Positions 6,852 to 27,364 of a stretch of 59,777 bases of DNA are shown one piece after another. The position numbers were made by a program, and so were the translations under genes. This DNA is from a virus (Duplodnaviria; Caudoviricetes). The stretch covers positions 1-59,777 of IMG/VR virus record IMGVR_UViG_3300025141_017126. One strand, written 5' to 3'. The stretch's first letter is position 1, and the number at the start of each line of letters is the position of its first letter. The notes under the pieces are model-generated. The model was not told where the DNA came from and ran no database searches. It saw only the letters and a list, made by a program, of their open reading frames with translations.

Positions 6852-7760
6852 TTAGAATGTTATGCCTAACCCAGCACTATAAACACTCTCTTCTGTATCA
6901 AGATCATAGTCTATTTCGGTAAATAAAACAGCGTCACTACCTAGTTTATAATGAACACCACCAGTAGTAAGACCATCATCACCAGTAGCATCAGTATCTC
7001 CATACCCTGCTAAAATAGTGATTGTTTCTTTAATAGTATAGCCTCCAACTACTTCATAACCCATAATATCTGTAGTGGTAGTATCTTGGACACTAAAACT
7101 ACCAGAAGCACTAATAGGGCCATAACTACGAGATGCACCAATACCATAATAACTTGTGTTATTGATAACATCATCAGCGTATGTTACGCCAATTCCTTCG
7201 TAAGTTGCTCCAATTTGCCATAGGTCAAAAGTTTCATCAGTTGCTCCATCAAGTATTTGAGATTGAGCACCAAAAGTTACACCTAGTGGAGTAGTTTTTT
7301 CATATTTAACACTATTGGTTAATTTATCTGAGGGTTGTTGAATACCTCCATTTCCACTAGCTTTAAATTGTGCTCCCTTATTTACATAATTTTCCATTAT
7401 GCTTTCTGTTTTACCGATACTAAGTGCACCTAGTGTGTCACTTTTTACACCAACATAACCGAATCTACTAGTAACGTCATCATTACCATCTCCATTAATA
7501 TCAACATCAACACTTAACTCTCCAAATACTGATGCAATGGGACTAAATTGATTACTAAATTTAACTCCAAGTTTACTGTCGGAGGTTTTTAATTCAGGAT
7601 CTTTTCCTGTTGCAGTTCCTCCCTCAACAAATGCTCGTGCTTCCCCAAATAGGGTTACTTGTGTATCTTGAACATCAACTACATTATCATCGTTAGCAAG
7701 CACTGGAGCACTTACAATAATTCCAGCTACTACTAAAGCACAGAAAATATTTTTATTCAT
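6852..7760 (-). CDS. Gram-negative outer-membrane porin
   Basis: Signal peptide, VTLFG, SR.GYVG...G.LS.GK, alternating beta strands and C-terminal Phe. Confidence 0.85.
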   Translation of the reverse strand: MNKNIFCALVVAGIIVSAPVLANDDNVVDVQDTQVTLFGEARAFVEGGTATGKDPELKTSDSKLGVKFSNQFSPIASVFGELSVDVDINGDGNDDVTSRFGYVGVKSDTLGALSIGKTESIMENYVNKGAQFKASGNGGIQQPSDKLTNSVKYEKTTPLGVTFGAQSQILDGATDETFDLWQIGATYEGIGVTYADDVINNTSYYGIGASRSYGPISASGSFSVQDTTTTDIMGYEVVGGYTIKETITILAGYGDTDATGDDGLTTGGVHYKLGSDAVLFTEIDYDLDTEESVYSAGLGITF

Positions 7761-8175: not shown

Positions 8176-8620
8176 TTGATGTTTCCTCTCGTGTATTATC
8201 AACAACCAGTTTAATTGATTGTTCTCTTTTAATGTGTGGCATTACCCTAACTATTTTTTCTTCAATTAAGTCATCTAGAACATGAGAAGTAAATGACTTT
8301 ACGCACTCATCCATAGATACTATATTTGCAGTTTTCGGAAGTTTTTTAACTACAATAGGATTACTTGTACAGTATGTTTCAATTAGATTCTGAACATACA
8401 TTAAATTAGCTGAACCAATTTTTCTAGGATTTTCTTGTAATTCAGCTTTTAATGTTTCCGAAATAGATTCATCGTCTGTATCAATATTTCTAGGAGAAAC
8501 TAACTCCCACAATCCTCCTGTATATATAACTCCTTCATCTTCATCTACAATATCTTGAGGATTATCCTCTAAGATTTTTAGAATTTTTCGTAGTAATTTT
8601 TCATAACCGTTTTTCTTCAT
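8162..8620 (-). CDS. Hypothetical protein
   Basis: ORF coupled to the Fpg gene. Confidence 0.65.
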   Translation of the reverse strand: MKKNGYEKLLRKILKILEDNPQDIVDEDEGVIYTGGLWELVSPRNIDTDDESISETLKAELQENPRKIGSANLMYVQNLIETYCTSNPIVVKKLPKTANIVSMDECVKSFTSHVLDDLIEEKIVRVMPHIKREQSIKLVVDNTREETSNVSV

Positions 8621-9480
8621 TTTTGAACCTCTGGTGAATAATATGTTGTTCTTTGATCATCTAATTTAATTTTTTGAATAGGATTACCATAAGGATCTTC
8701 TTTTTGAGAATAAACCATAACACCTATTCGTGACTTCATCATTTCATCAGCTTTAGAAGGAAAAGCAACATACTGCCCTTGATTATTATATAAATCAGAA
8801 TAATTTCTGATAGTTGCTCCTCCTGTTTCGTAACTATTTTTTAAAACCGTTTTAACCGCCGTATAAAGCCGCGACAGTTCTTCCGAAGTACAGTCCCTAA
8901 CCTTGCGATAGGGAGCCAGACCAGCCAAAAATAGACTTTCGGATTTATAAATATTGCCAACACCGGATACATTTTTTTGCTCCATTAAAAATTTAACTAA
9001 AGATTGATTTTTACGTTTTTCACATATTTGAAGCCATGTTTTTTCATCACATGGCTCATTTAACATATCTGGACCAATTTCCGAAAGTTTTTTATTCAGT
9101 TCTTTCGATGACTCTGATCCAAAATAAAATTTAAGAGTTCCAAAATTTCTCATATCAGAATAATAAATTTCTGTATTATCATCAAAAGTCCACCGTACTC
9201 TTGCATATTTATTATCTTTGGTTTTATAAGTTCCTGTCATTCCTAATGTTGAAAATATAACTCCAGAACTTGTAATCCAATAAATAAACTTACCTTTATT
9301 ACTCACTCCTAGGACTTTTTGAGACTCATGATTAATTGCTCCATCTACAAAATCAGTAAAACCACTGGGTTCTTTTTTAGTATATCGTCCTGATAAAAGT
9401 TCAATATCTTTGATAACTTTATCTTGAACTATACTATTTAATTGCTTTGTAACAATTGTTACTTCTGGACCTTCCGGCAT
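8617..9480 (-). CDS. Fpg/Nei DNA glycosylase with zincless finger
   Basis: MPEGPEV, KGKFI, D.RNFG, H2TH SGVGNIYKSE; C-terminus has RTTYY but no Cys4 finger. Confidence 0.93.
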   Translation of the reverse strand: MPEGPEVTIVTKQLNSIVQDKVIKDIELLSGRYTKKEPSGFTDFVDGAINHESQKVLGVSNKGKFIYWITSSGVIFSTLGMTGTYKTKDNKYARVRWTFDDNTEIYYSDMRNFGTLKFYFGSESSKELNKKLSEIGPDMLNEPCDEKTWLQICEKRKNQSLVKFLMEQKNVSGVGNIYKSESLFLAGLAPYRKVRDCTSEELSRLYTAVKTVLKNSYETGGATIRNYSDLYNNQGQYVAFPSKADEMMKSRIGVMVYSQKEDPYGNPIQKIKLDDQRTTYYSPEVQK

Positions 9481-10904: not shown

Positions 10905-11144
10905 ATGTTTAAACTAATTGGATTCTACATAAATGAAAATCAAAAAACCTATATAGATATGGTTTTAGCGAACTGTGATGGTATAAATCAAAAAGAATCG
11001 CAATCCGCTATTGATAACTCATTATGTGAAAAATATGGATATTCGACTTTTCCAGTTTTTGCTTTGTTTAAAAACAATGTGTTAACTAGAAATGTAGTGG
11101 GTAAATACCCAATTAACACTATTAAATCTAAATTATTAATATGA
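10905..11144 (+). CDS. Thioredoxin-fold protein lacking CxxC
   Basis: L.EKYG.STFP.FALFKN......VG resembles the thioredoxin C-terminal half. Confidence 0.5.
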   Translation: MFKLIGFYINENQKTYIDMVLANCDGINQKESQSAIDNSLCEKYGYSTFPVFALFKNNVLTRNVVGKYPINTIKSKLLI

Positions 11145-11443
11145 AAATAACAGTATATAATAACGATGTAAGTAAAGCTTACCGCATCCTTCAAAAAAAA
11201 TTAAATAATGAAGGAACTTTAAGAGAATTAAAAGAGAGGGAATTTTTTAGAAGTAAAGGCGAAAAAAAACGTCTTGAACGCAAAAGAGGAAGAGTTCGTT
11301 ATAAAAAACAAGAGAAAAAAAGAATGATTGCTCTTGAAAAAGCAGAATTGCGTGCTTTTAAACAACGAAAACTTAATCAAAAAAACGCAAGGCAATCCTC
11401 CCCTCATAAAGCCAATAAAACCTGGAAAAATACTAAAAAATAA
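11141..11443 (+). CDS. rpsU: Ribosomal protein bS21 with C-terminal extension
   Basis: V.NNDV.KA.R.L.KK...EG...ELK.REFF....EKKR. Confidence 0.9.
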   Translation: MKITVYNNDVSKAYRILQKKLNNEGTLRELKEREFFRSKGEKKRLERKRGRVRYKKQEKKRMIALEKAELRAFKQRKLNQKNARQSSPHKANKTWKNTKK

Positions 11444-11475: not shown

Positions 11476-11724
11476 ATGAAAGCATTTAAAGGAAGTTTTA
11501 AAAAGAAGTCGGGTGAAAACAGAGAGATGTTTTTTGCCAGAATTTCTGACTTACCAAGTCAATTTGTAGCCGCTAAGATCGTGGGTGCAGGTAATGAACA
11601 AAATTATCCAAAAGGTATGGAACTTGTTTGGGATTTAGAACAAGATGATTTTCGTATTTTTAATTGGAATACTACCAATTCATCTATTATGGAAACTGAA
11701 ATAGATGAAAACCTACTTAGTTAA
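11476..11724 (+). CDS. SH3-barrel WYL_2/DUF2693-like protein
   Basis: F.KKSGE.REM ... VWDLE...FR.F pattern. Confidence 0.55.
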   Translation: MKAFKGSFKKKSGENREMFFARISDLPSQFVAAKIVGAGNEQNYPKGMELVWDLEQDDFRIFNWNTTNSSIMETEIDENLLS

Positions 11725-11986
11725 AATTACTCTGAGAAAAAATATTTTAGATAAAGCAGGAACAGCAGTTACTAAAGTCTTAATTAATATGGGATATAAA
11801 GTTAAAAATGTACGAATTGGTAGAATTATTTGTATAACTACAGATGAAGATATAGAACTAATTGCTAAGAGTATAACTAATGAAGTTATGGAAGATTTCG
11901 AAATTGAGTGTCTCGATGATAGGAGCAGAATAAGCATACAGGACATGGGGGCAGTACCCATCGCCTCCACCACGAATACATTGTAA
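11705..11986 (+). CDS. purS: PurS (FGAM synthase subunit) with an extension overlapping the tmRNA
   Basis: ITLR..ILD.AG.AV...L..MGY.V..VRIGR ... N.VMEDFEIE. Confidence 0.8.
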   Translation: MKTYLVKITLRKNILDKAGTAVTKVLINMGYKVKNVRIGRIICITTDEDIELIAKSITNEVMEDFEIECLDDRSRISIQDMGAVPIASTTNTL

Positions 11987-12369: not shown

Positions 12370-13098
12370 ATGATATTACAAAAACAAACCAAAACCAAAT
12401 ACAAATCAGATGCGTTATCTCGAAAGCAGTTGTCTGATTTTTTTAATGACTATGAAAAAGAAGAAAAAGAATATGATACCCTCTGGGATAATTGGTTCCT
12501 AGCTGAATCAATACACTGTCATCAAGACTATGGAGGTGAATATGCTGGTTCAGGAACTTTAGACTATATTGAAGGACTTATCTTATATACCCTTATAAGA
12601 AAAAATAAACCAAAAACCGTATTTGAGATAGGTACGGCACAAGGTATGAGTGCTGCTCTAATGGCATCAGCTATCGAAGCTAATCAAAACAATGGAAAAA
12701 TTTTCTGTGTAGATAAAAAGTTACCTCATAGAATGAGTCCTACTTTTAGTAAGGCAATGGAAGCTGAGTTTATTGAATTTTATGAAGCAGATGTTTTTGA
12801 ATTTTTAGATGAGATAAAAGAAATTCCTGATCTAGTATTTGTAGATGCTGATCACAGAGAAGAATTTTGTATGAAAATTACTAAAATTTTAGCTGATTCT
12901 TTTCCTAACGCTATTTATGCTTATCATGAATGGTCTCTTTCTACTATATCTCAAAAACCAGAAATAGAGTATATTTCAAGATCAGAATGGTTGCATCAAT
13001 TTTATGAACGCCCTGCTTTTGAACTATACTTTAATAAACCAAAATATAAACACAATGGATTTGTAGGAAGTTGTGGATTAGGAGTAGTTACTCAATGA
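12370..13098 (+). CDS. Class I SAM methyltransferase (Methyltransf_24-like)
   Basis: FEIGT.QG.S and DLVFVDADH motifs. Confidence 0.85.
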   Translation: MILQKQTKTKYKSDALSRKQLSDFFNDYEKEEKEYDTLWDNWFLAESIHCHQDYGGEYAGSGTLDYIEGLILYTLIRKNKPKTVFEIGTAQGMSAALMASAIEANQNNGKIFCVDKKLPHRMSPTFSKAMEAEFIEFYEADVFEFLDEIKEIPDLVFVDADHREEFCMKITKILADSFPNAIYAYHEWSLSTISQKPEIEYISRSEWLHQFYERPAFELYFNKPKYKHNGFVGSCGLGVVTQ

Positions 13099-13796
13099 TT
13101 ATTTATTTTAGATGTACAAGTAAAGAAGAAACAGTTAGTGGGGTAGATCGGTGGATTGAATGCCCAAAAGATGAAATCGTTTTAAAATGTTGGATGAGTT
13201 TACAACTTGCAGCAAAACCAAAAAACGATAGGTTTATTATTCTTCACGATGAATTAAATTCTGGTGCTTTAGAGTTTATCAAAGAAACTCAGACTTGTAA
13301 TACAGAATTTATTGAAGTGGAACCCCACGATCTTCAAGATCGAGGACACACATTTAAATTATTAGAAGTCTTAAAAGAAAATCTTGAACAAGACGAAGTA
13401 AATGATATTCACTATATTGTAGAAGATGACTACTTACATACTCAAGATTCATTAGAAGTTTGTAATGAAATTCTAGGTTCAAATTTATGGGAACATTTTA
13501 TAGTTCCTTATGATTACCCCGATAGATATTCACTAGATACTCAACCTTGTGGGTTAATGGTAGGCCCCAGATGTCACTGGCGTACTAATCCAAGCTCAAC
13601 TTATACTTTAATGGCACAGGCTGAAACATGGAAAAAAGCAATGCCAATTATTGAAAAGCATGCACCTCATAATTTTACAGAAGAAGCGTTTCAATCATAT
13701 CCATGTTTAAGTCCAGTACCTGGAAAAGCATCTCATTTAACTAAATATCATATGACTCCCCTTATTGATTGGAGAGATATCTGGAATAAGCTATGA
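13095..13796 (+). CDS. GT-A fold glycosyltransferase-like protein
   Basis: YIVEDDYLH DxD-type motif, YDYPDRY. Confidence 0.65.
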   Translation: MIIYFRCTSKEETVSGVDRWIECPKDEIVLKCWMSLQLAAKPKNDRFIILHDELNSGALEFIKETQTCNTEFIEVEPHDLQDRGHTFKLLEVLKENLEQDEVNDIHYIVEDDYLHTQDSLEVCNEILGSNLWEHFIVPYDYPDRYSLDTQPCGLMVGPRCHWRTNPSSTYTLMAQAETWKKAMPIIEKHAPHNFTEEAFQSYPCLSPVPGKASHLTKYHMTPLIDWRDIWNKL

Positions 13797-14593
13797 CAAC
13801 CACCCAAGAATTTTTAAAAGAAATTAAAGAAAAAGATATACATACTCGTCAAGACCGAGAAAAATATCTCGGACAAGAATTAGATAAATTTATTGATTCT
13901 GGTGGTGAAATGCATGATTTTGGCGATAGTGATAGTACACCTCATTTAGACTTAGTTTATGATTTTGTAAGATGGTATCCCTCAGATATGTATGAACATC
14001 TTCCTACATTAAGAAAATATGCGGGAAAGTGTGATACAGTATGTGAGTTTGGTACTAATGACCTTACAAGTACTCTTGGCTTATTGAGTGGATTTCCTAA
14101 ACATTTAATAACCTTAGACCTTAATCACCCAGATATATTTGTATTAACTTTTGAACCCTTTAGTCCAAATCGTAAAGAAAATGAAGAACCTATGATAATT
14201 AAACTCAATCTTGAAACAGTCAATAAAATTGCTGCTGAAAATGAGATTGAGTTTAAATTTATACAAACTAACTCATTAGAATTTTCTTTTAATAGCGTAG
14301 ATTTATTGTTTATTGATAGTTTACATACTTATACTCAATTAACTAAAGAGTTAATGTTGCACTCTAAAAAAGTAAAAAAATATATTATCTTACATGATAC
14401 AGAATTTTATGGAGAAAAAGGACAAGATAATAAAGATGATGAAGGAAATTATTTATGCCCACACTGGGAAACTAAAGGTATAGGACATGCAATTGCGGAG
14501 TTTTTAGAAAATCCTTATAGCGGTTGGGTTATTGATAAACACTATACAAATTGTCATGGTCTAACTATCCTAAAAAGACCGTGGATAGCATAA
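13793..14593 (+). CDS. Class I SAM methyltransferase (Methyltransf_24-like)
   Basis: EFGT, DLLFIDSLHTY, ILHDT and N.HGLTIL motifs. Confidence 0.85.
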   Translation: MTTTQEFLKEIKEKDIHTRQDREKYLGQELDKFIDSGGEMHDFGDSDSTPHLDLVYDFVRWYPSDMYEHLPTLRKYAGKCDTVCEFGTNDLTSTLGLLSGFPKHLITLDLNHPDIFVLTFEPFSPNRKENEEPMIIKLNLETVNKIAAENEIEFKFIQTNSLEFSFNSVDLLFIDSLHTYTQLTKELMLHSKKVKKYIILHDTEFYGEKGQDNKDDEGNYLCPHWETKGIGHAIAEFLENPYSGWVIDKHYTNCHGLTILKRPWIA

Positions 14594-14594
14594 A

Positions 14595-15524
14595 ATGGAT
14601 CAATCAGATCTCTTTTTAGATCAAGATTTCTTTGGCCAAAAACTTAAAGAGTCAGATCATTTATTAGCGGGACCGTGGATAGGAGAATTCGGTTGGGAGT
14701 TATTTTGCTTTCAGGGTTATTTGAGAAAGTTAAGGGATGATAACCCTCATATTAAATCATTTAACGTAATTAGCAGACCGGGAAGAAGTGTTATATACGA
14801 GGATTTCTGCGACGTATTTGTTGAATATGATTGTCCAGGGACAGAACTCACTGGAGCTTTATGTATGGGGTGGGATACAACTCCTGCTATTCAATTTGCA
14901 CATACTGTAACAAATAGCCTAAAATTAGAAAACTGTATATGGATACCTCCTCAAATATTTCCTATTAACTACCACGCTGATGGTCCCGAATACGAAAAGT
15001 ATTTAAAAATTTTTAATGAAAGCCAAAAGTTTATTCAATTTGGTAAATTTAATTCTGAAGTATCTTATGATATAGTTATACACGCAAGATCAACAGGTAA
15101 ATTTAATTCAAGCGATAGAAATTGGCCAGAAGCTAAATGGTACGAATTAATAGAGTTACTTAATAAAGATGGATTAAAAATAGCTTGTATCGGTTTAGAG
15201 GGTCAAGCTCTTGCCCTACCAAAAACCACTAATTTACTAAATATTCCGCTTGAAGAAACAGTAGATGTATTAGCTAGTTCTAAATGTATTGTAGGAACTT
15301 CTAGTGGTCCTATTCATTTAGCTTCTTTATGTGGATGTCCACAAGTATTAATTTCTGAATGTGTGGAAAGCGGAGGAAAAGATAATGAACGTAGATATAA
15401 ATACGACTGGAATCCTTTAAAAACGCCAGTTCATTTAGTTAAATACGAAAACTCAAAAAAAGATAATGGGTGGAATCCCCCGATAGATAAAGTAAAGAAA
15501 CTTATAGATGATATACTGTTTTGA
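14595..15524 (+). CDS. GT9 (heptosyltransferase)-like glycosyltransferase
   Basis: RNWP...W..LI and VGTSSGPIHLASLCG.P motifs. Confidence 0.75.
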   Translation: MDQSDLFLDQDFFGQKLKESDHLLAGPWIGEFGWELFCFQGYLRKLRDDNPHIKSFNVISRPGRSVIYEDFCDVFVEYDCPGTELTGALCMGWDTTPAIQFAHTVTNSLKLENCIWIPPQIFPINYHADGPEYEKYLKIFNESQKFIQFGKFNSEVSYDIVIHARSTGKFNSSDRNWPEAKWYELIELLNKDGLKIACIGLEGQALALPKTTNLLNIPLEETVDVLASSKCIVGTSSGPIHLASLCGCPQVLISECVESGGKDNERRYKYDWNPLKTPVHLVKYENSKKDNGWNPPIDKVKKLIDDILF

Positions 15525-15831
15525 TTTAGATGGAACTTTAGTTACTAATACGGAAGATGAAAATGGTGAAATGCATTATACTGAAGCAAAACCTATACCA
15601 GAAGCTATTAATAGATTAAGAAAACTATATGAATCAGGTCATAAAATTATTATTCAAACTGCTCGTGGGTCAAAAACAAAAAAATTTGCTGAATATACTA
15701 AATTAACTGAAGATCATTTAGAAAAATTTGGTATTCCTTATCATCAACTTATTGTTGGGCATAAACCGTCTGCTGATCTTTATATAGATGATAAAGCTAT
15801 TAATGTTAAAGATTGGTTAAAAAGTGACTAA
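15508..15831 (+). CDS. Capless HAD phosphatase (capsule-biosynthesis type)
   Basis: DLDGT, TARG and KP..DLYIDDK motifs. Confidence 0.9.
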   Translation: MIYCFDLDGTLVTNTEDENGEMHYTEAKPIPEAINRLRKLYESGHKIIIQTARGSKTKKFAEYTKLTEDHLEKFGIPYHQLIVGHKPSADLYIDDKAINVKDWLKSD

Positions 15832-16669
15832 TATTGTATTAGGTGCTGATCATAATGGCATTGAATTAAAAAAATTAATTAAAGAAGATTTAATTTTTAA
15901 TTCAAGATTTAATCCAATAGATATCGGCCCTTTTAATACAGATAAAGTTGATTATCCTGATTATGCATCTCAAGCAGCTCAAATACTAGCTAATGGAGAT
16001 GCTCAATTTGGAATTTTAATTTGTGGAACCGGTATTGGCATGAGTATTGTAGCAAATAAAGTTGCAGGAATCAGGGCTGCGTTAGTTCATAATCTACAAA
16101 CCGCACCTCTTGCAAAAGAACATAATAATGCAAACATGTTATGTTTAGGGGCTTGGGTAGTTGATCATCCTACTAGTTTACAGATTGTACACAGCTGGTT
16201 AAATGCAAAATTTGGAGAATACCGCCATGTTAAAAGAGTAGCAAAAATAGATGTTAATCCTACCAATAAAATTGTGTTTACTAATGGAGTATTTGATTTA
16301 GTACATAGTGGACATGTCGAACTTCTTAATTTTGCTAAATTATTAGGAGATAAATTAATAGTAGGATTAAATTCTGATAGTTCAACACAATCTCTTAAAG
16401 GCGATAAAAGACCAATTAATAAAGAAGAAGATAGAAAAAATATTGTTCAGTCATTACGAGCTGTTGATGAAGTAATAGTATTTGATTCTACAAATACTAC
16501 AGATTTAATAAAAAGTCTCAAACCTAATATTGTTGTTAAAGGTGGAGAATGGACAGCAGAAGAAGTTAGAAAAAGAGACGAAATACCTAATGATATAGAA
16601 GTTTATGTATATCCCTTTAAAGAAGGTTATTCTTCAACAAATATTATTAATATGATTAAGGAAAAATAA
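15824..16669 (+). CDS. RpiB-type isomerase fused to a HldE/RfaE-II type nucleotidyltransferase
   Basis: N-terminal GADH.G, DYPD, CGTGIG, EHNNAN; C-terminal TNGVFDLVHSGH, GLNSD, KG..RP, YSSTNII. Confidence 0.9.
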   Translation: MTNIVLGADHNGIELKKLIKEDLIFNSRFNPIDIGPFNTDKVDYPDYASQAAQILANGDAQFGILICGTGIGMSIVANKVAGIRAALVHNLQTAPLAKEHNNANMLCLGAWVVDHPTSLQIVHSWLNAKFGEYRHVKRVAKIDVNPTNKIVFTNGVFDLVHSGHVELLNFAKLLGDKLIVGLNSDSSTQSLKGDKRPINKEEDRKNIVQSLRAVDEVIVFDSTNTTDLIKSLKPNIVVKGGEWTAEEVRKRDEIPNDIEVYVYPFKEGYSSTNIINMIKEK

Positions 16670-16670
16670 T

Positions 16671-17315
16671 ATGTCATCTCCTCGTGAATGTGAAGTATAT
16701 AATCGTTTATTATATGATCTTGGTTTAGTAAGTTGGACATCAGGAAATGTAAGTGTTTCCGATGGAGAAAATCTTTATATTAAACCTAGTGGAGTTCTTT
16801 TTGAGGATATTCATTCTAATAATGTAGCAAGTGTTAATATAGAAACTGGAAAACATTTTAGAGGACTAAAACCTTCTACAGATACCGAAAGTCATCGAAT
16901 TATATATAAAAATAAACCAGAAATAAAGGCGGTGGTTCATACTCATTCTACATTTGCAACAGCTTTTGCTGCTTGCGGAAAAAACATACCAGTATATTTA
17001 ACTGCAATGGCAGATGAATTTGGAGAAGAAATTCTCTGTTCTGGATATGCTGAAATTGGTGGAAAAGAAATTGGAGAAGAAGTATGTAAATATTCCGATC
17101 CAACTGGAATTGTATTATTACGTAATCACGGAGTTTTTACCGTTGGAACAAGTGCTAAATCAGCGTTAAAAAAAGCTGTAATGGTAGAAGATATCGCAAA
17201 AACCACATATTATGCTTTAAAATTAAGAAATCCAATTGAATTAACTGAAGAACAGATTAAAAATTGTTATGATAGATACCAAAATACCTATGGACAAAAT
17301 TTTACTAATCGGTGA
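16671..17315 (+). CDS. Class II aldolase / L-ribulose-5-phosphate 4-epimerase (AraD-like)
   Basis: WTSGNVS, KPSG, KPSTD..SH, HTHS and NHG motifs. Confidence 0.88.
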   Translation: MSSPRECEVYNRLLYDLGLVSWTSGNVSVSDGENLYIKPSGVLFEDIHSNNVASVNIETGKHFRGLKPSTDTESHRIIYKNKPEIKAVVHTHSTFATAFAACGKNIPVYLTAMADEFGEEILCSGYAEIGGKEIGEEVCKYSDPTGIVLLRNHGVFTVGTSAKSALKKAVMVEDIAKTTYYALKLRNPIELTEEQIKNCYDRYQNTYGQNFTNR

Positions 17316-18120
17316 TACGATTATTGATATTAATACTGAAGGGGTTTTATTAGGAACCTCTTCAGAAACTCCTACTTTAGTAATTACTAAAGATACTGAA
17401 ACAATTACTCATGGGGGTGCAGCATTAGTTCATCGTAATCTTACTAAATTAGAATGTAGTCATGAATTTGTTACAAATAATTCTCTAGTAACTTTAAATA
17501 AAAAGATTACAACTAAACACCGTTATTGGTGTAATAAACATAAACTTTTACAAGTAGATGATAGAGATAATACCCCTATTACAGATGAAGAATCAGAACT
17601 AATATTTGAATACATTCAAAGATCTGATGCTAATGTAATAGCAATAGCTGATTATCGACACGGTCTTTTATCTCCCAAATTAATAGAACTAATTAATACC
17701 TCTAATAAAATAATTATTTTAGATTCTCAGGTTTCACAAAGTCCTGCTAATCATCATATGTATAAACATATTTATTTAACTCTATTAAATGAACATGAAG
17801 CTGAACAATATGTATCAAATGTTAGTTGGGATAACCCTGAAGAATTAAAAGAAGGATTATATAAAGAAATAGACTCCCTTCATTTTATTGTTAAATTTGG
17901 AAAACTAGGTTGCATTTACTTTGATTCAAAAACCTCTATACAACATAGAACACATTCAGTTGAAAATCCTGTTGATGAATCAGGAGCTGGCGATGCGTTT
18001 ATGGCTGGGTTATTAGCTTGGATGCAGAAAGGTTCGTCTATAAATGAAGCATCTGGGTGGGCTAACGAATGGGCGCGTAGATCTGTGATGGTAAAAGGAG
18101 CTAATCCCCCTGATGACTAA
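17290..18120 (+). CDS. PfkB sugar kinase (HldA/RfaE-I-like)
   Basis: IGD.IID, S.E.P..V, GGAA.V..NL, DY..G and D.SGAGDAF motifs. Confidence 0.88.
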   Translation: MDKILLIGDTIIDINTEGVLLGTSSETPTLVITKDTETITHGGAALVHRNLTKLECSHEFVTNNSLVTLNKKITTKHRYWCNKHKLLQVDDRDNTPITDEESELIFEYIQRSDANVIAIADYRHGLLSPKLIELINTSNKIIILDSQVSQSPANHHMYKHIYLTLLNEHEAEQYVSNVSWDNPEELKEGLYKEIDSLHFIVKFGKLGCIYFDSKTSIQHRTHSVENPVDESGAGDAFMAGLLAWMQKGSSINEASGWANEWARRSVMVKGANPPDD

Positions 18121-18517
18121 TAAATATGGTATTCAAAAAATACCAGAGATACATCAATGTACAGACTATAGAGATAAGTATTGGGGCTGGATAAAAACTT
18201 GTTCTGCTACTAATGATTTTACATTAAAACATATTTTTATGCATAAAGATAGCCAAAGTAGTTTGGAATATCATGTCAAAAAAGATGAAAATTACTATAT
18301 TCTATCAGGTAAATTAAAAGTCGGACTTCGAATTGGTAGAGCAGAAAATAAAGAAGTTATTTTAAATGAGGGAGATGTCTACCATATTTCTCCAGGATTA
18401 ATGCATATGAGATTTGCAATAGAAGATACTCACATCATTGAATGGTCTAATAAAGATGATGACAGTGATTCACACATAGTCGAAGATGGACTTTTATATC
18501 AACATGAGGTTAAATAA
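18113..18517 (+). CDS. Cupin sugar isomerase (mannose-6-P/lyxose isomerase-like)
   Basis: SSL.YH..KDE.YY.LSG and PG..H motifs. Confidence 0.8.
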   Translation: MTNKYGIQKIPEIHQCTDYRDKYWGWIKTCSATNDFTLKHIFMHKDSQSSLEYHVKKDENYYILSGKLKVGLRIGRAENKEVILNEGDVYHISPGLMHMRFAIEDTHIIEWSNKDDDSDSHIVEDGLLYQHEVK

Positions 18518-19188
18518 TGAAATTATTTTTAGATACAGCTAATTTAGCTGACATAGAAACTGCTCTTCAAAAAGGGTTTATTACCGGAATTACCACTAAT
18601 CCGTCCTTGATGGCTAAAGAACCTAAAGGAAACTATATTGATCACATGAAAAAAATTGTGGAACTTATAGATAAATATTCTAATCCTATCAGTTTGAGCG
18701 TAGAAGTATTTGCTCAAAATAAAGAAAAAATTATTATAGAAGCTGAAGAATTGGTAAGTGAAATTCAATACGAAAATTTAAGTATTAAAGTACCTATTGG
18801 ATGGGAGGAACTAGAAGCGATTTACCAATTATCAATTGAAGGAATCAGTGTAAACTGTACTTGTATATTTAGTGAAGCACAATGTATGCTCGCAACTAAT
18901 GCGGGAGCACGTTATATTTCAATTTTTGGAAATCGTGTTAAAGAGTTACGAGGTAGTTTTACACAAGCTGTAGGAGCTACACGTAAATGGTTAGATATGA
19001 ATGATATTACTAATACAGAAATTATAGTGGGTAGTATTCGTTCTGGGATTGATATTGTCGATGCACAGTTAGCAGGAGCACATATTGTTACAGCAGGACT
19101 TCCACATTATATTAAAATGAGTGAGCATCCCGGTACCACAGCTTCTGTAGATCAATTTATGACAGATTTTAAAGAGTGGTTAGCATGA
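18517..19188 (+). CDS. TalC-type transaldolase
   Basis: DTA, GITTNPS, Schiff-base KVP and NCT; SVEV (Glu) and SIF (Phe) mark the transaldolase rather than FSA subtype. Confidence 0.9.
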   Translation: MKLFLDTANLADIETALQKGFITGITTNPSLMAKEPKGNYIDHMKKIVELIDKYSNPISLSVEVFAQNKEKIIIEAEELVSEIQYENLSIKVPIGWEELEAIYQLSIEGISVNCTCIFSEAQCMLATNAGARYISIFGNRVKELRGSFTQAVGATRKWLDMNDITNTEIIVGSIRSGIDIVDAQLAGAHIVTAGLPHYIKMSEHPGTTASVDQFMTDFKEWLA

Positions 19189-20045
19189 AAATAGTATATG
19201 CAGCGGTATTTACCGAAACATCAACTAACACTCCTCAAGCTAATGCATTTGAAAAATTAGGTCATGAAGTAATCCGTTATGATTTTAAAGAAAAACTTAA
19301 AGAATTTGGTGAACCTAATTTACGGGATAAGGATCTTATAAATACTTGTGTATCAGAAAATCCAGATCTACTTCTTTTTAGTAAAGGCGTGGGAATTGAC
19401 AGTAGTGTTATCCCCACCTGTCAAGATATATGTCACGTAGCTTTATGGTATATGGACCCTATGATAAATGTTGATCAGGAATTGCTAGAAAAAATTGATA
19501 AAGTTAATTCAGTTTTTTATACTGCCCCGACAGTATATAGTACTTTAAAAGACAAAAATATCAATAGCTATTTTATTCATGAGGGGTATGAACCAACCTT
19601 TCATAAATTCTATGACAAAATTGATAAAGTATATAATGTTAGTTTTATAGGAGCTTTAAAGGAGCATCGAAAGCAGTATTATGATTTCTATAACTTTAAT
19701 TGTTTCTCAGATAAATATAATAAAGATCATTGTAAAATAATTAATCAAACTAGAATAAATTTAAACTTTACTAATAATCGTGAAGGAACTTCGGATAGAG
19801 CTTATAAAATTATGGGAAGTGGTGGATTTTTACTAACAGAACCCTGGGATGGTTTAGAAAACGATTTTAAACCTAATGAAGACTTAGTTATTTTTAATAA
19901 TGAAAATGAATTTAAAGAAAAAATTGAAGAATATTTAAAGGATTGGCAAAAAAGAAAACAAATTGCCCGTAATGGTGTAAATACTGTACAAAAATACACT
20001 GTAGAAGAATGGGCTAAATTTATTATCGAGGAGACAATATTATGA
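19185..20045 (+). CDS. CgeB-like GT-B glycosyltransferase
   Basis: W..DP, VSFIG, INLNF and R.Y...G.GGFLLT motifs. Confidence 0.85.
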   Translation: MKIVYAAVFTETSTNTPQANAFEKLGHEVIRYDFKEKLKEFGEPNLRDKDLINTCVSENPDLLLFSKGVGIDSSVIPTCQDICHVALWYMDPMINVDQELLEKIDKVNSVFYTAPTVYSTLKDKNINSYFIHEGYEPTFHKFYDKIDKVYNVSFIGALKEHRKQYYDFYNFNCFSDKYNKDHCKIINQTRINLNFTNNREGTSDRAYKIMGSGGFLLTEPWDGLENDFKPNEDLVIFNNENEFKEKIEEYLKDWQKRKQIARNGVNTVQKYTVEEWAKFIIEETIL

Positions 20046-20923
20046 GAGCAAACTTAATCGGAGTAGGATATTGGGGTTCTTTTATTTATAAAACACTCAG
20101 GGAAATAGGCTTTACTGATATTAATTTATGTGACCCCCAAGTTCCAGGAGCTTATAATAATTATAAAAAAATGGAAGATGCGCAGTATGTATTTATTGCG
20201 ACTCCTGTAAAATCTCACTTTGAAATGTGTAAATATTTTCTTTCTCAGGGTAAAAGAGTATTTTGTGAAAAACCGTTAGTATCTACGGAGGAAGAAGCAC
20301 AACAACTTTATGAAATTGCTGAAGAGAATAATACTTATTTATTTGTTGATTGGGTATTTACCTATAATTATGGGGTTTCATTAATAAAACAATATATTGA
20401 TGATAAAAGAAAAGAACTACATAGAAATCCTATTAATGATATTTATATTTGTAGAAAAAATACAGATATTGACCATATTACTGATATTAGTGCTAAAATA
20501 GATTTAGCTGGACATGATCTCTCAATAACTTTAACTCTTACTGACCAGATTCCGTTATCAGTTCATTGGCATGAGTATAAAAAGAATCCAAATTCTATTC
20601 AAAATGATAGTGCGCTAGGCTATTTAACTTTTGAAAAATTTAATACTACTATTGATGTAAGTTGGTATAATGCTTATAAAGATAGAGAATGTGTAATTAA
20701 ACTTGAAGGGAACGAATATATTTTATGGAATGATGTTGATCAAACAGTTACATTTCAAAAAAATCATAGAGATTTTCCACTTACTATCAATTATTCTAAA
20801 CATGCATCTCCTCTTGAACGATCTATTAAACAATTTATGATATTTAATAAGGAAGCGTATATTCAACAAAAAGAACTTACGATACAAATTTTAAGGATTT
20901 TAAATAATGATAGTAAAATTTAG
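20042..20923 (+). CDS. Gfo/Idh/MocA oxidoreductase (WbpB-like)
   Basis: GVGYWG, ATP...H, CEKP and DLAGHD motifs. Confidence 0.88.
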   Translation: MRANLIGVGYWGSFIYKTLREIGFTDINLCDPQVPGAYNNYKKMEDAQYVFIATPVKSHFEMCKYFLSQGKRVFCEKPLVSTEEEAQQLYEIAEENNTYLFVDWVFTYNYGVSLIKQYIDDKRKELHRNPINDIYICRKNTDIDHITDISAKIDLAGHDLSITLTLTDQIPLSVHWHEYKKNPNSIQNDSALGYLTFEKFNTTIDVSWYNAYKDRECVIKLEGNEYILWNDVDQTVTFQKNHRDFPLTINYSKHASPLERSIKQFMIFNKEAYIQQKELTIQILRILNNDSKI

Positions 20924-22040
20924 TGATATAGCAGCCCAATGGAAAGTAATTAAAAAAGACTGCTTACCTAAGATTGAAAATTTCTTAGAAAGTGGAAATT
21001 ATATTGGTAATTCGATAATTGATGAGTTTGAAAATAACTTTGCAAATTATATTGGGTGCGAATATGCTATAGGAGTATCCAATGGAACTAATGCATTAAA
21101 ATTAAGTATTCAATCTCTTAATCCTACAAATAAAGTTTGTGTTATTATTCCAGCTAACACTTTTATTTCAAATGCACTTGCAGTTTCGTATTTTAATTAC
21201 GATCTAAAATTAATTGATTGCGATGAATTTTATGGAATGAAAGTTGAAAATTTACATGCTTGGTTTGCAGGTAAAAGAGAAAATTATGATAGTGTAATAG
21301 TAGTACCTGTTCATTTATATGGTTATCCAGCTAATATTCAAAGAATAAGAGATTTATGTAATCTTTATGATGCCCGTATTATTGAAGATTGCTCTCAAGC
21401 ACACGGAGCTACAATTAGAATTGGAAAAGTAGGAAATTTTGGAGATTTAGGAGTATTTTCTTGTTACGCTAGTAAAAATTTAGGAGCTGCAGGTGAAGGA
21501 GCTATTATTACCACAAATAATAATCAACTCTATCAATCTTTAAAAGAATTACGTGATTTAGGATCATCTCAAAAATATCAAAATCGAATTTTAGGTTGGA
21601 ATGACCGACCCCACGCAATTCAATTTATTATTCTCAATGAAAAATTAAAATATCTCGATGAATGGAATAGTAATCGAGGTTATGCAGCTGAACAATATAA
21701 TAAACAACTTAAAGACTTACCTATTATTTTACCTGTAGAACCACAATGGTCAACAGTGTCGGTTCATCATTTATATGTTATTAGAACTGAACAAAGAGAT
21801 GAACTTCAACAATTTTTAAATAAAAAAGATATTCAAACAGGTATTCATTATCCTATTCCTATTGGGGAACAAGAGCTTTATAAAAACGATAATTTAACAA
21901 CTAAGGGGATTATTAATACTATGGATTGGAAAGATAAATTACTTAGTTTACCAATGCACCCATTTTTAACAGATGATGAAATAAATTATGTATGTAGCTC
22001 AATAAAAGAATTTTTTGATGCCAGTTCACACTCAATATAG
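20907..22040 (+). CDS. DegT/DnrJ PLP sugar aminotransferase
   Basis: NGT.AL, PVHLYG, ED.SQAHGA, SKNLGA.GEG and LSLPMHP motifs. Confidence 0.93.
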   Translation: MIVKFSDIAAQWKVIKKDCLPKIENFLESGNYIGNSIIDEFENNFANYIGCEYAIGVSNGTNALKLSIQSLNPTNKVCVIIPANTFISNALAVSYFNYDLKLIDCDEFYGMKVENLHAWFAGKRENYDSVIVVPVHLYGYPANIQRIRDLCNLYDARIIEDCSQAHGATIRIGKVGNFGDLGVFSCYASKNLGAAGEGAIITTNNNQLYQSLKELRDLGSSQKYQNRILGWNDRPHAIQFIILNEKLKYLDEWNSNRGYAAEQYNKQLKDLPIILPVEPQWSTVSVHHLYVIRTEQRDELQQFLNKKDIQTGIHYPIPIGEQELYKNDNLTTKGIINTMDWKDKLLSLPMHPFLTDDEINYVCSSIKEFFDASSHSI

Positions 22041-22482
22041 ATCTCAAATTAGAGATTGTAAAATAGGTAAAAATGTTACTATTGTTGAACCTGTTAATTT
22101 ATATGAATGTACTATAGGAGATAATACTAAAATAGGACCGTTTGTAGAAATACAACAAGGTGTAATAATAGGAAATAATTGTAATATTCAATCACATTCT
22201 TTTATTTGTACTAAAGTATCTATAGGAAATAATTGTTTTATTGGACATGGTGTTATGTTTACTAATGATCTTTTTAAAAATGGGAAACCCGATCCTAATC
22301 CAAATAACTGGAAAGAAACTATAATTACAAATCATGTAACTATAGGATCAGGAGTAACTTTATTGCCTATAACTATTAGTGCAACAGATGTAATAATTGG
22401 AGCTGGGGCAGTAGTAACTAAGGATATTACCCAATCAGGAGTTTATTTTGGAAATCCTGCCAAAATAAACTCTATTTTATAG
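22015..22482 (+). CDS. LbH N-acetyltransferase (WbpD-like)
   Basis: Hexapeptide repeats, FTND, GAGAVVTKD, GNPA. Confidence 0.9.
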   Translation: MMPVHTQYRSQIRDCKIGKNVTIVEPVNLYECTIGDNTKIGPFVEIQQGVIIGNNCNIQSHSFICTKVSIGNNCFIGHGVMFTNDLFKNGKPDPNPNNWKETIITNHVTIGSGVTLLPITISATDVIIGAGAVVTKDITQSGVYFGNPAKINSIL

Positions 22483-24214: not shown

Positions 24215-25141
24215 AAAAATTTTAAAATCTGGGGAGTAAGTTTTAGTTTAATTGGGGATTTAATTGTAGGACTCCCTCAATTAACTTATTTCGAAAAGAA
24301 ATATCCAGGTAGTTATAAATACTGGGGAATTCATAAAAAAATGTCTCATGCAGCACCCTTATTTTATAACCATCCTCTTATAGACAGAATAAAAATTACT
24401 GATAAATGGGGTGAATTTGGAGAATATGACTACGAATTAGCATCTAAATGCGATATAAGTACTAGAGATTTAGATAATGATAGAAAAACATTACTAAATG
24501 CTAGACCCGAAGATTATTGGTATAATGACCACGATATTGTTGAACAAATGGCTCGAATGTCTGGTATTTATGATATTAAAGAAGTTCTTACTGAGGATGA
24601 ATTAAGACCACAGTTATATCAATGGTTTGATACTGATTTTGATGCTATTGAAAAGAATGAAGGTTATACAAAAGTACGAACTAATTCAGGATTAATTCCT
24701 GAAAAAAGTGTAGTTATTTGGCCCTTTAGTGGGTATGGTCACTGGCCAGCACGATCACCCTCTGCTAATTGGTGGAACACAGTAGTAAATACTTTAATTG
24801 ATAATAATTTTATAGTTTTTCACTGCGGATGGATAGAAGAACCACATTTATCAAATTTAGACGGATATGTGAGGTGTGTTAATCTATCATTCTTTGAACA
24901 AATAAAAGTTAGTTTAGCAACAAAGTTAGCAATAGGTGCAGATAGCGGGTCTATGTGGACATTAGGAGCATATTCATTTCCTGCTATTCATCTAATGACT
25001 AATTGGAGAGATGGTCATACACAAAATTTTAGTGCGATGAATCCAGTTAATATCAATGGAACTTCATTTTTTGCTCCTCCAATGACTGATGGGTGGTCTT
25101 TTGAAGAAGTATTAAATACAGTATGGGATAAAACCAAATGA
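24209..25141 (+). CDS. GT9-like glycosyltransferase
   Basis: LIGDL...P, HPLID and IGADSG.M...GA...P motifs. Confidence 0.75.
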   Translation: MNKNFKIWGVSFSLIGDLIVGLPQLTYFEKKYPGSYKYWGIHKKMSHAAPLFYNHPLIDRIKITDKWGEFGEYDYELASKCDISTRDLDNDRKTLLNARPEDYWYNDHDIVEQMARMSGIYDIKEVLTEDELRPQLYQWFDTDFDAIEKNEGYTKVRTNSGLIPEKSVVIWPFSGYGHWPARSPSANWWNTVVNTLIDNNFIVFHCGWIEEPHLSNLDGYVRCVNLSFFEQIKVSLATKLAIGADSGSMWTLGAYSFPAIHLMTNWRDGHTQNFSAMNPVNINGTSFFAPPMTDGWSFEEVLNTVWDKTK

Positions 25142-26337
25142 TTACAGCAAAGAAAATATCAAAATGTAGATTATGCGAATCTACAGATTTAACATCTTTT
25201 TTTAGTACTGGAAATATTTATATAAACGATTTTCCAACAACTCCCACAGGTCATAGAGGTAAAGCCGAAATGACTCTAGTAAGATGTAATGAATGCACAT
25301 TAATTCAACTTGATCAGACAGTAGATAGTGAAGTATATTTTGAATATTGGTATCAATCCAAATTAAATAAAAAGATTGTTAATAATTTACAAGACATTGT
25401 AAATGAAGTAAAGAAAGAAGTATCCTTAGAAGAAGGAGATTATGTACTTGATATTGGAGCAAATGATGGGACATTATTAAGTTTCTACGAAGATTTACCT
25501 ATTACTCGTATAGGATGCGATCCAGCTAAATCTATTCAAGATGATTTAAAAAAACACAGTGAGTATCAAATTAATGATTTATTCCATAAGTCAGCTTGGG
25601 ATAAAATAACAAAACAAAAAGCTAAAGTTATTACTGCAATTGCTATGTTTTATGATCTTGATAATCCACATGAATTTGTAAGAGGTATTCAGCAAATATT
25701 AGCACCTGATGGAGTATTCGTTGTACAACTTATGCCCGCTCGACCAATGTTAGATACCTATGATATTGGAAATGTCTGTCACGAACACTTACTTTACTAT
25801 ACTTATGAATCTTTAGTTACATTATTTGAAGAACATGGATTACAAATTTATAAACTTAAAGAAAATGATATTAATGGAGGATCGTATCAACTTTGGGTAA
25901 AACATAGTGATCCTTATGGTAAATCAATACACTACGAAGAAGATTGTTCTCTTGATAGATTACATGAATGGACTAATCAAATTAATAAAAATCGTATAGA
26001 AACGGTACGATTTATTAATAAAGAAGTACAAAAAGGTAAAAATATATATTTTTATGGAGCTTCTACTAAAGGTAATACGATTGCTCAATGGTATGGATTA
26101 AATCCAACTAATATTAAAGGAGCAGCAGAAATACATCCAGATAAAATAGGTAGATACATGGTAGGAAGCCAAATTCCTATTGTTCACGAAGACGAAGCAC
26201 GAAAAGATGCAGATTATTTTGTTATTATAGGATTCGGATTTCGAGATATTTTTATTGAAAAAGAAAAGAAATTTTTAAAAAATGGAGGAAAACTCATATT
26301 TTGTACTCCAAAATTTGAAATTGTAGAACATGATTAG
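25138..26337 (+). CDS. NDP-sugar C-methyltransferase
   Basis: CRLC/C..C Zn site, DIGANDG, HEH..YY and YGA..KGN motifs. Confidence 0.9.
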   Translation: MITAKKISKCRLCESTDLTSFFSTGNIYINDFPTTPTGHRGKAEMTLVRCNECTLIQLDQTVDSEVYFEYWYQSKLNKKIVNNLQDIVNEVKKEVSLEEGDYVLDIGANDGTLLSFYEDLPITRIGCDPAKSIQDDLKKHSEYQINDLFHKSAWDKITKQKAKVITAIAMFYDLDNPHEFVRGIQQILAPDGVFVVQLMPARPMLDTYDIGNVCHEHLLYYTYESLVTLFEEHGLQIYKLKENDINGGSYQLWVKHSDPYGKSIHYEEDCSLDRLHEWTNQINKNRIETVRFINKEVQKGKNIYFYGASTKGNTIAQWYGLNPTNIKGAAEIHPDKIGRYMVGSQIPIVHEDEARKDADYFVIIGFGFRDIFIEKEKKFLKNGGKLIFCTPKFEIVEHD

Positions 26338-27364
26338 AAAAAAAGCCCTTATAACTGGAATTACTGGACAAGATGGTGCTTATTTAAGTAGATATCTCGT
26401 AAATAAAGGATATGAAGTTTATGGTGGAATAAGACGTGGAAGTACTGATAGTACTTGGAGGTTAGAAGAATTAGGAGTTCTAAATCAGATTAAACCTATT
26501 TTTTTAGAACTTTTAGAAGAGTCTAATATTAACTACATTGTTAAGACTTTAAAAGTGCAAGAAATTTATAATTTAGCAGCTATGAGTTTTGTGAGAACAA
26601 GTTTCGATTATCCAGTTTATACAGCAAATGTGGTAGGTTTAGGCGCTATGAGATTCTTAGAAGCTATCAGACAAGAAAGTCCTCATACTAAATTTTATCA
26701 AGCTTCTTCGTCTGAAATGTTTGGAAAAGTACTAGAAAGTCCTCAAAACGAAAATACATCTTTTTATCCTCGATCCCCCTATGCAATTGGAAAAGCTTTT
26801 GCACATTTTTCAGTACTTAACTATCGTGAAGCTTATGGAATACATGCTAGTTCTGGAATGTTATTCAACCATGAATCTCCTTTACGAGGACTTGAATTTG
26901 TTACTCGCAAAATAACTTCAACTTTAGCACGTATAGCCAATGGCGAAAATATTATATTAGAATTAGGTAATATGAACGCTCAAAGAGATTGGGGTTATGC
27001 AGGTGATTATGTTAAAGCTATGTATCTCATGTTACAACAAGATGAACCTGATGATTATGTAATTTCAACAGGCGAAACTCATAGTATTAGAGATTTTTTA
27101 GAAATTGCTGCTGATCATCTAGGTATGGAACTTACTTATTCAGGTTCAGGAGTAGATGAAAAAATTTATAATCAAGACGGTAAAATGATTGGGTGTATTA
27201 ATCCAATACATTTTAGACCGACAGAAGTAGATTTATTATTAGGAGACTCCACAAAAGCTAGAAAAGTTCTTAAATGGAAGCCTGACTTTAGTTTTAAAGC
27301 ATTAGTTAAGATGATGGTAGAATCAGATTTTGACAAAGTTAATAAAGGTATTAAATTACAATGA
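26330..27364 (+). CDS. gmd: GDP-mannose 4,6-dehydratase
   Basis: TGITGQDG.YL, QASSSEMFG, YPRSPY, FNHESP.RG..FVTRKI and RDWG motifs. Confidence 0.95.
   Translation: MIRKKALITGITGQDGAYLSRYLVNKGYEVYGGIRRGSTDSTWRLEELGVLNQIKPIFLELLEESNINYIVKTLKVQEIYNLAAMSFVRTSFDYPVYTANVVGLGAMRFLEAIRQESPHTKFYQASSSEMFGKVLESPQNENTSFYPRSPYAIGKAFAHFSVLNYREAYGIHASSGMLFNHESPLRGLEFVTRKITSTLARIANGENIILELGNMNAQRDWGYAGDYVKAMYLMLQQDEPDDYVISTGETHSIRDFLEIAADHLGMELTYSGSGVDEKIYNQDGKMIGCINPIHFRPTEVDLLLGDSTKARKVLKWKPDFSFKALVKMMVESDFDKVNKGIKLQ

Follow-up and report, generated by a model that had tools for sequence, protein, structure and literature searches.

Nucleotide-heptose synthesis is usually seen as a fixed four-enzyme route that opens with GmhA, and in the lincosamide route to a GDP-octose the enzymes LmbR, LmbN, LmbP, LmbK and LmbO act in that order, with ribose-5-phosphate as the acceptor of the carbon transfer. 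LmbR, LmbN, LmbK and LmbO are assigned as transaldolase, isomerase, phosphatase and nucleotidyltransferase, respectively, in Table 1 and the legend of Fig. 2 of PMC12945683; nucleotidyltransferases of heptose synthesis have been described in three architectures (monodomain, kinase/nucleotidyltransferase and isomerase/kinase/nucleotidyltransferase; PMC11573728), among which a fusion to RpiB does not figure. Here a cassette of six genes is described from the IMG/VR virus record IMGVR_UViG_3300025141_017126 (59,777 bases, G+C ~30%, CheckV completeness 53%), the whole length of which was analysed and is called the window; the source of this cassette copy is a marine phage. It is likely, judging from the protein families encoded, that the cassette makes an activated C7 or C8 sugar, with kinase and nucleotidyltransferase steps of the ADP-heptose type, a cupin in the place of GmhA and a biosynthetic transaldolase. 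No description of such a cassette was found in the literature searched, which took in articles without their supplements; the pelagimyophage paper PMC7029224 mentions, in the part available, rfaE and glycosyltransferases only.

The six open reading frames (ORFs) lie on the plus strand at 15508-19188 with overlapping or abutting ends and encode a HAD phosphatase (15508-15831, 107 aa), a fusion of RpiB to an HldC-like nucleotidyltransferase (15824-16669, 281 aa), an AraD-type protein of the class II aldolase fold (16671-17315, 214 aa), an HldA-like PfkB kinase (17269-18120, 283 aa), a cupin resembling phosphomannose isomerase (PMI; 18113-18517, 134 aa) and a short transaldolase (18517-19188, 223 aa). 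An earlier reading of the same DNA (the original prediction) had named six contiguous, coupled genes of these families, and both the ORFs and the family matches held in Pfam and NCBIfam. Using a profile of the fusion protein, 18 viral contigs with a full-length fusion were retrieved (50-85% identity), 16 of them uncut by a contig end; within each of the pairs L089/L090 and L095/L096, gene coordinates and identities to the window coincide, so that the two members may be duplicates of each other. Fusion, kinase, cupin and transaldolase occur together in 16/16 uncut viral loci, the HAD gene in 15 (absent from L091) and the AraD gene in 14 (absent from L095 and L096). With a cupin profile, 28 loci with the same core were found in cellular assemblies, namely of Pelagibacteraceae, a Prochlorococcus single amplified genome (SAG), Woesearchaeota and Pacearchaeota, many Acidobacteriaceae, Lacunisphaera, Stellaceae, a gammaproteobacterium and Longimicrobiales; the fusion is present in 26 of these, transaldolase and HAD in 25 each, and missing core genes fall at contig ends. 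Since these genes turn up together amid differing flanks at 16 uncut viral and 28 cellular loci, what the window carries is a copy of a widespread and real module, beyond chance, and the co-occurrence elsewhere on which the original prediction had been made to depend was thus found by the synteny search. Most other genes of the surrounding island in the window recur in its three closest relatives only, mainly in L082. Occurrence is sporadic: among 151 genomes of the family of G001, G001 itself is the only one with the cassette. A DNA-level search of isolate phages returned only a 99-base match in P-TIM68, and a search of isolate phages with the fusion protein returned half-length matches, save two unannotated 'Listeria phage LM' contigs (34% identity); scanning cellular contigs with a single protein gave RpiB-only matches, and a cluster look-up yielded no informative names.

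Directly upstream of the cassette, a GT9-like glycosyltransferase gene (14595-15524, plus strand) has a stop that overlaps the HAD start. Its product scores 27.7 bits with PF01075 (Glyco_transf_9), above the cut-off of 22, and has weak matches to heptosyltransferase models of NCBIfam. Three GT9-like transferases had been predicted; only this one was found, by Pfam and by a custom GT9 profile (built from four sequences), which gave 1 match in the window. By the same profile, GT9-like genes stand beside the cassette in 9/18 viral and 20/28 cellular loci (those in L102, L107 and L104 were upheld by Pfam). The predicted partnership is therefore borne out as frequent neighbourhood across loci, and a GT9-like transferase is the likely user of the cassette product.

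The transaldolase matches TAL_FSA (PF00923, 1.1e-41) and scores below the NCBIfam equivalog cut-off. Its Glu, Lys and Phe align to the catalytic positions in 1vpx, 3r8r and 3s0c; a Schiff-base Lys with Glu and Phe presumably denotes a transaldolase, fructose-6-phosphate aldolase (FSA) having Gln and Tyr, and since Glu/Phe and not Gln/Tyr are present, the enzyme is read as a transaldolase and not an FSA. The residues D6, N28, E63, K91, N113, T115, S135, F137, R140, S173 and R175 are kept in 37/37 cassette transaldolases, that is, every checked catalytic or phosphate-binding position is retained, and a cassette signature (P36, F65, G172, D179 and W221 in 37/37, S210 in 36, C116 in 34) is seen in none of 6 outgroup sequences. 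Of the 47 rows of a tree, 38 are cassette transaldolases, 23 from cellular and 15 from viral loci, that fall into a single clade (support 96/96); outside it stand five cyanophage TalC rows, a fecal-metagenome transaldolase and a long housekeeping transaldolase, the outgroups beyond TalC being one short (L134) and one long sequence. Copies (L138, L139, L141, L142 and L143), duplicates (L090 and L096) and fragments (L128 and L136) were left out of the tree, and L137, L140, L145 and L146 gave no tblastn match and are not in it. The phylogeny against cyanophage TalC had been proposed as a check on the claim that the transaldolase is biosynthetic and not a classic auxiliary metabolic gene (AMG); because it is not grouped with TalC, the protein reads as a cassette enzyme and not as a pentose-phosphate AMG, and the claim is supported in this respect. 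Genomes G001, G002 and G004 carry a long housekeeping transaldolase and a transketolase besides the cassette transaldolase; in five large viral records the cassette transaldolase is the only one.

Several observations were made on transaldolases and transketolases around these loci. The transaldolase of the variant cassette L126 pairs in the tree with a different transaldolase from G004. A further glycan-locus transaldolase was seen beside a HAD hydrolase and a weak SIS-like match in L150 (G002:C5:505000-513000, at 3537-5896) and also in G004:C29 and G001:C5; it stands among GT2 and WecG genes, its G004 copy groups with the L126 transaldolase, and the locus may be a second, LmbR/LmbN-like sugar-extension module. 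Transketolase was considered as a general cassette member and rejected, being near the cassette in L125 only, with a piece in L127 (47 loci and the window): L125, from an alphaproteobacterial SAG, has a split transketolase a few kb downstream of the cassette (5322-7053), and L127 has a minus-strand C-terminal transketolase piece nearby.

The fusion protein consists of an RpiB domain (nt 15833-16249, residues 4-142; PF02502, 3.3e-49) and an HldC-like nucleotidyltransferase domain (nt 16262-16660, residues 147-279; PF01467, 4.9e-20). The RpiB half exceeds the rpiB equivalog cut-off (TIGR01120, 145.1 bits versus 138.65), and D9, H10, C67, H100, N101, R134 and R138 are invariant across 7 diverse fusions; after E. 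coli RpiB, we take these to be the catalytic Cys, His and Asp and the phosphate-binding Arg residues. The nucleotidyltransferase half reaches 156.1 bits with TIGR02199 (rfaE_dom_II), below the cut-off of 181.5, and has the HxGH motif and a C-terminal end F-x-x-G-Y-S-S-T of the (F/L)xxGxS(S/T)T type. When a profile of the fusion was compared with the PDB, RpiB 3he8 was matched at 1.9e-43 and the best match of the nucleotidyltransferase half was 5x9q (9.2e-30). Hundreds of metagenomic homologues carry both domains. Fusions with two nucleotidyltransferase domains also occur, in the orders RpiB-NT-NT (P0102 and P0107) and NT-RpiB-NT (P0113), NT standing for nucleotidyltransferase; many cassettes (among L104-L110 and L112-L119) have in addition a stand-alone HldC-like nucleotidyltransferase, which is absent from the window and adjoins the GT9 gene in Acidobacteriaceae. 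L119 has an NT-HAD fusion, L087 a second set of nucleotidyltransferase, PfkB kinase and small cupin (12676-14170) and L113 a canonical HldE (3250-4902, minus strand).

The kinase matches PF00294 (1.4e-18) and has a GAGD motif; taken alone it is weak with TIGR02198 (109 bits versus a cut-off of 345). A profile of 11 cassette kinases matched the heptose-7-phosphate kinase HldA 4e84 over the full length at 4.2e-33, and ribokinases at ~1e-15 at best, over the C-terminal third only. The HAD protein of the window is small and cap-less, with intact DxDGT-type (DLDGT) and DD motifs, and matches HAD_PNKP (5.5e-7) and the EcbF-BcbF capsule phosphatase model TIGR01689 (1.5e-8); no GmhB model in NCBIfam matches it, and HAD-SF-IIIA gives 31 bits, below the cut-off of 44.6. 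A profile of 10 cassette HAD proteins, compared with the PDB, matched two small proteins of capsule loci, 9iqw (5.8e-21) and 1xpj (7.9e-18); GmhB was not among the matches, and the sole other one, 3r4c, is weak. The cassette phosphatase is accordingly assigned by sequence to the small capsule-locus HAD family and is predicted not to be GmhB-like. Of the ADP-heptose-like logic in the original prediction, the kinase and nucleotidyltransferase have support in that HldA and HldC are their nearest solved relatives; a GmhB-like phosphatase has none.

The window cupin has Cupin_1 and Cupin_2 matches and a weak match to PF01050 (7.8e-4); E52, H54, E59 and H98 are invariant in 10 cupin homologues and form a PMI-like motif. 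Its sequence was uninformative against the PDB. A structural model (pLDDT 88.2) was compared with sugar-acting cupins and gave TM-scores of 0.62-0.72 without a clear best match, the folds matched being the CapF C-domain, KdgF, lyxose isomerase, cupin phosphoglucose isomerase and PMI. In the Atlas, mainly viral cupin clusters were found, with PMI or lyxose-isomerase Pfam matches in a minority of members. The family comprises 58 representatives at E <=1e-30 and 599 at <=1e-10, most of the close ones being bicupins of ~260 aa. PMI-type cupins act on fructose-like ketose phosphates, and because of this the protein is by analogy a natural candidate for the ketose-to-aldose step. Most cassettes have a second cupin, either as a separate protein of ~120 aa (W-H-x-H...D-E; L085 12821-13180, L094 6394-6753, L102 9373-9735 and L087 13808-14170) or as the N-terminal half of a bicupin (L107 7581-8417), often with degenerate metal ligands; the cassette of the window has a single cupin of the C-terminal type only. 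Another cupin gene of the window (54150-54593, plus strand), directly after that of the ribonucleotide reductase small subunit, has weak Cupin_2 and PMI C-terminal matches and a stretch T-G-H-x-H...E-E-V-Y that we take to be reminiscent of cupin-type phosphoglucose isomerases; it was rejected as kin of the cassette cupins, as it was unrelated in comparison, and it has no NCBIfam match.

The AraD-type protein matches PF00596 (7.1e-45) and, at 240.5 bits with a cut-off of 251, the L-ribulose-5-phosphate 4-epimerase model NF005123. An alignment with E. coli K-12 AraD shows N28, K42, S44, G45, S74, D76, H95, H97, D120, H171 and Y229 conserved at the equivalent positions, with Thr at S75; the aligned residues are presumably the Zn ligands, the Asp/Tyr acid-base pair and the phosphate pocket. 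Because these equivalents are kept, the protein is assigned by its sequence as an epimerase-type member of the aldolase fold, with a predicted phosphate pocket of the pentulose-5-phosphate type. In the original prediction it would supply a non-standard pentose. It is an accessory, optional member of the cassette, because it is missing from 2/16 uncut viral and 15/28 cellular loci (present in 13; one of the 15 lacking loci is cut by a contig end).

The absence of GmhA, as originally predicted, was confirmed for the viral records: no match to SIS_2/PF13580 was found in the window record (59.8 kb, 53% complete), and the 5 related viral records that bear the cassette, of which 3 are >=94% complete, likewise gave no SIS match. 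In cellular genomes, many of which are incomplete, GmhA was called at >=160 bits; of the 28 cassette genomes 9 have such a match, 10 a weaker SIS-type match (~44-118 bits) and 9 none. Because 9/28 also have such a GmhA match, the cassette is more than a stand-in for genomes that lack it. Complementarity between cassette and GmhA within one family was also tried and failed, since of the 151 genomes of the G001 family only G001 had the cupin. In the woesearchaeote G005 no real transketolase was found (its metagenome-assembled genome, MAG, is incomplete).

From these families a route to an octose may be drawn up, which we put forward tentatively and at somewhat less than an even chance. The RpiB domain would keep ribose-5-phosphate in supply, and the dedicated transaldolase would transfer a C3 unit from fructose-6-phosphate (or sedoheptulose-7-phosphate) to ribose-5-phosphate, giving octulose-8-phosphate; the PMI-like cupin would convert the ketose phosphate to the aldose phosphate, the HldA-like kinase would phosphorylate C1, the small HAD protein would strip the distal phosphate and the HldC-like domain would form the NDP-sugar (NDP, nucleoside diphosphate), which the adjacent GT9-like transferase would attach to a glycan, either of the infected cell or of the virion. 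The AraD-type epimerase would be an optional extra outside this linear scheme. Kinase, nucleotidyltransferase and GT9 partner together suggest activation of the ADP-heptose type, and the product is most likely an ADP-linked, beta-anomeric higher-carbon aldose for surface glycans. Ribose-5-phosphate is favoured as the acceptor because the transaldolase is constant and coupled and RpiB is always fused and above its equivalog cut-off; further pointers are that the cassette coexists with GmhA, in L113 with HldE and in L087 with the second nucleotidyltransferase, PfkB and cupin set, and that G005 is without a real transketolase. The transaldolase reads as dedicated because it has its own 96/96 clade and because G001, G002 and G004 hold a housekeeping transaldolase as well. 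That the product is specifically ADP-octose from fructose-6-phosphate and ribose-5-phosphate, with the GT9-like enzymes as 'octosyltransferases', is a proposal that we hold to be somewhat doubtful.

A number of points weigh against the octose route. Substrate and product are both predictions. Heptose is the simpler prior, since transaldolases ordinarily form sedoheptulose-7-phosphate and the GT9 family is known for its heptosyltransferases; octoses are, to our knowledge, almost without precedent in glycans, and ribose-5-phosphate is abundant in all cells, so that a dedicated RpiB is not obviously needed. The AraD-type protein keeps its pentulose-5-phosphate-type phosphate site, for which the octose route gives no reason, and the second HldC-like nucleotidyltransferase and second cupin domain of many cassettes are superfluous to the linear scheme. 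The fold search leaves an isomerase and an epimerase role of the cupin unseparated, the nucleotidyltransferase, kinase, AraD and transaldolase proteins are all below NCBIfam equivalog cut-offs, and a gene not found in G003 or G005 is weak evidence, since both are incomplete MAGs.

The same enzymes could instead make a plain heptose, if the cupin (or the RpiB domain) did the job of GmhA, the kinase, HAD and nucleotidyltransferase took the HldA, GmhB and HldC steps, and transaldolase, RpiB and AraD merely pushed pentose-phosphate carbon to sedoheptulose-7-phosphate; we regard this as possible but rather questionable. PMI-type cupins yield manno-configured aldoses, as this account would have it, and it agrees further with HldA and HldC as the nearest solved relatives, the 156 bits reached with TIGR02199, the frequent GT9-like partners, the 19/28 cassette genomes without GmhA at >=160 bits and the 5 viral records without SIS, as well as the split transketolase near the cassette in one locus (L125); phage-borne NDP-heptose enzymes have already been published (PMC11573728). 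Against it, the other 9/28 genomes have GmhA at >=160 bits too, and the HldE beside the cassette in L113 and the second set in L087 would make the cassette redundant there. G001, G002 and G004 own a housekeeping transaldolase and transketolase, yet retain the cassette-clade transaldolase and the fused RpiB; nor do the usual AraD substrates feed sedoheptulose-7-phosphate, and the phosphatase is not GmhB-like. An NDP-pentofuranose is a less probable product and we consider it unlikely: RpiB, AraD and cupin would provide an unusual aldopentose-5-phosphate, the kinase would turn it into the 1,5-bisphosphate, the HAD protein would remove the 5-phosphate and the nucleotidyltransferase would complete the NDP-sugar, leaving the transaldolase as carbon supplier only. 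Both RpiB and AraD keep canonical pentose-5-phosphate catalytic and phosphate-binding residues, the HAD protein is nearest to small capsule-locus phosphatases and not to GmhB, and the available part of PMC13326640 describes a phage pathway to NDP-arabinofuranose that runs through an isomerase, a C1 kinase, a HAD 5-phosphatase and a nucleotidyltransferase. Against this, no partners are more constant than transaldolase and cupin, and their translational coupling, too, is hard to square with carbon supply alone. Many cassettes do without AraD; heptose enzymes are the closest relatives of both kinase and nucleotidyltransferase, a GT9-like protein is the partner transferase, and the window ORFs that were scanned against Pfam include no cytosine- or dCMP-modifying enzyme of the Afh-companion type.

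That the genes are unrelated, a classic transaldolase AMG and stray lipopolysaccharide genes having become neighbours by chance within a phage glycan island, we hold to be highly improbable. Transaldolase AMGs are indeed common, 502 phage records matching the protein (mostly Synechococcus, Prochlorococcus or unnamed cyanophage records), and the window does have a 20-kb island of mixed sugar genes, but 16 uncut viral loci and 28 cellular ones share the gene set while differing in their flanks, the transaldolase lies outside the TalC group and the gene ends overlap.

If the proposed ADP-octose is the product, C8 neutral sugars would be expected at the surfaces of SAR11, DPANN archaea, soil Acidobacteria and phage-infected marine cells, and the pathway would be the first of its kind outside antibiotic biosynthesis. 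Any new C7 epimer or C8 sugar would enlarge the stock of units from which microbial surface glycans are built and would offer a reason for carriage by phages, e.g. host surface remodelling or virion glycosylation; it would also widen the range of metabolites akin to NDP-heptose, which attract interest as agonists of innate immunity (PMC11573728). Were the product plain ADP-heptose, the cassette would still be a non-homologous replacement of GmhA and GmhB. In each case the cassette departs from the usual route at its front end, where a cupin stands together with a fused RpiB and a transaldolase of its own, and it is spread over abundant ocean phages as well as SAR11, soil bacteria and DPANN archaea.

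The cassette is enclosed in a glycan-gene island of ~20 kb (12.3-32.6 kb), which further contains methyltransferases, several glycosyltransferases, a trio of oxidoreductase, aminotransferase and acetyltransferase, a true GDP-mannose 4,6-dehydratase (Gmd), a further short-chain dehydrogenase/reductase (SDR) and a sugar C-methyltransferase. Two more sugar-nucleotide routes are thereby seen inside the island (20042-22482 and 25138-28368): the first, a GFO/IDH/MocA oxidoreductase with a DegT aminotransferase and a hexapeptide acetyltransferase, has an acetamido-sugar pattern, and the second combines the sugar C-methyltransferase with the true Gmd (437 bits, cut-off 415) and the SDR. Among the SDR genes of the window no HldD equivalog was found in NCBIfam. 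Because phage genes lie on both its sides (an exonuclease at the left; ligase, helicases, primase, DNA polymerase, SbcCD and ribonucleotide reductase at the right), the island is phage-borne, the label 'provirus' of the record notwithstanding. The DNA polymerase is 38-39% identical to polymerases of phages of ~110-130 kb that infect enterobacteria and vibrios, which we take to be T5-like, so that the replication genes of the window phage are presumably T5-like as well. Just upstream of the island are genes for a ribosomal protein S21 homologue (11141-11443; PF01165, 1.8e-8) and a PurS-like protein (11705-11986; PF02700, 2.5e-12). The load of metabolic and repair genes is unusual for a phage, with a pantoate-beta-alanine ligase (1-915), an IscA-like Fe-S protein (2979-3296), an Hsp20 (5232-5672) and a Fpg/Nei DNA glycosylase (8617-9480) on the minus strand and an aspartate/ornithine carbamoyltransferase (42903-43766) and a NifU-like domain (45051-45344) on the plus strand. 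The G+C content of 34001-36000, which spans an NAD-dependent ligase gene and a D5-like gene, is 0.43 compared with ~0.30 elsewhere, and this part may be a recent acquisition.

Compared with the ADP-glycero-manno-heptose pathway, the cassette has the same activation logic, the same families of PfkB kinase and PF01467 nucleotidyltransferase, a HAD phosphatase and a GT9-like enzyme next door; it differs in having a PMI-like cupin and no SIS isomerase, a phosphatase of the capsule-locus HAD family and not GmhB, a nucleotidyltransferase fused to RpiB, and its own transaldolase, often with an AraD-type epimerase. In the 'STTR5' motif of heptose nucleotidyltransferases (PMC11573728) promiscuous enzymes have Arg, whereas the cassette nucleotidyltransferase has Tyr there. 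With the short cyanophage TalC the window transaldolase shares its family and the Glu, Lys and Phe at the catalytic positions, but identity is at most ~37%, TalC falls outside the cassette clade, and the window enzyme is coupled to sugar-activation genes. The phage NDP-arabinofuranose pathway for arabinosylated 5-hydroxycytosine DNA (an arabinose-5-phosphate isomerase, the kinase/nucleotidyltransferase AfhE and the HAD phosphatase AfhF), as far as it is set out in the available part of PMC13326640, likewise takes an intermediate of the pentose phosphate pathway through four steps (isomerase, C1 kinase, distal phosphatase and nucleotidyltransferase); there, however, the isomerase is of the SIS type, kinase and nucleotidyltransferase have other folds, and the product feeds DNA modification, whereas the neighbours in the window are glycan-building and no hydroxycytosine synthase was found among the window ORFs scanned against Pfam. 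The proposed route is also like the lincosamide GDP-octose route, in which a transaldolase-built octulose-8-phosphate is isomerised, phosphorylated at C1, dephosphorylated and nucleotidylated; this comparison was made by the list of functions in the available part of PMC12945683. Set apart by their descriptions, the two differ in that the cassette has a cupin and not a SIS-type isomerase, a PfkB kinase and a PF01467 nucleotidyltransferase of the ADP-heptose type, and in that the lincosamide genes form an antibiotic cluster, whereas the cassette resides in glycan loci and phages.

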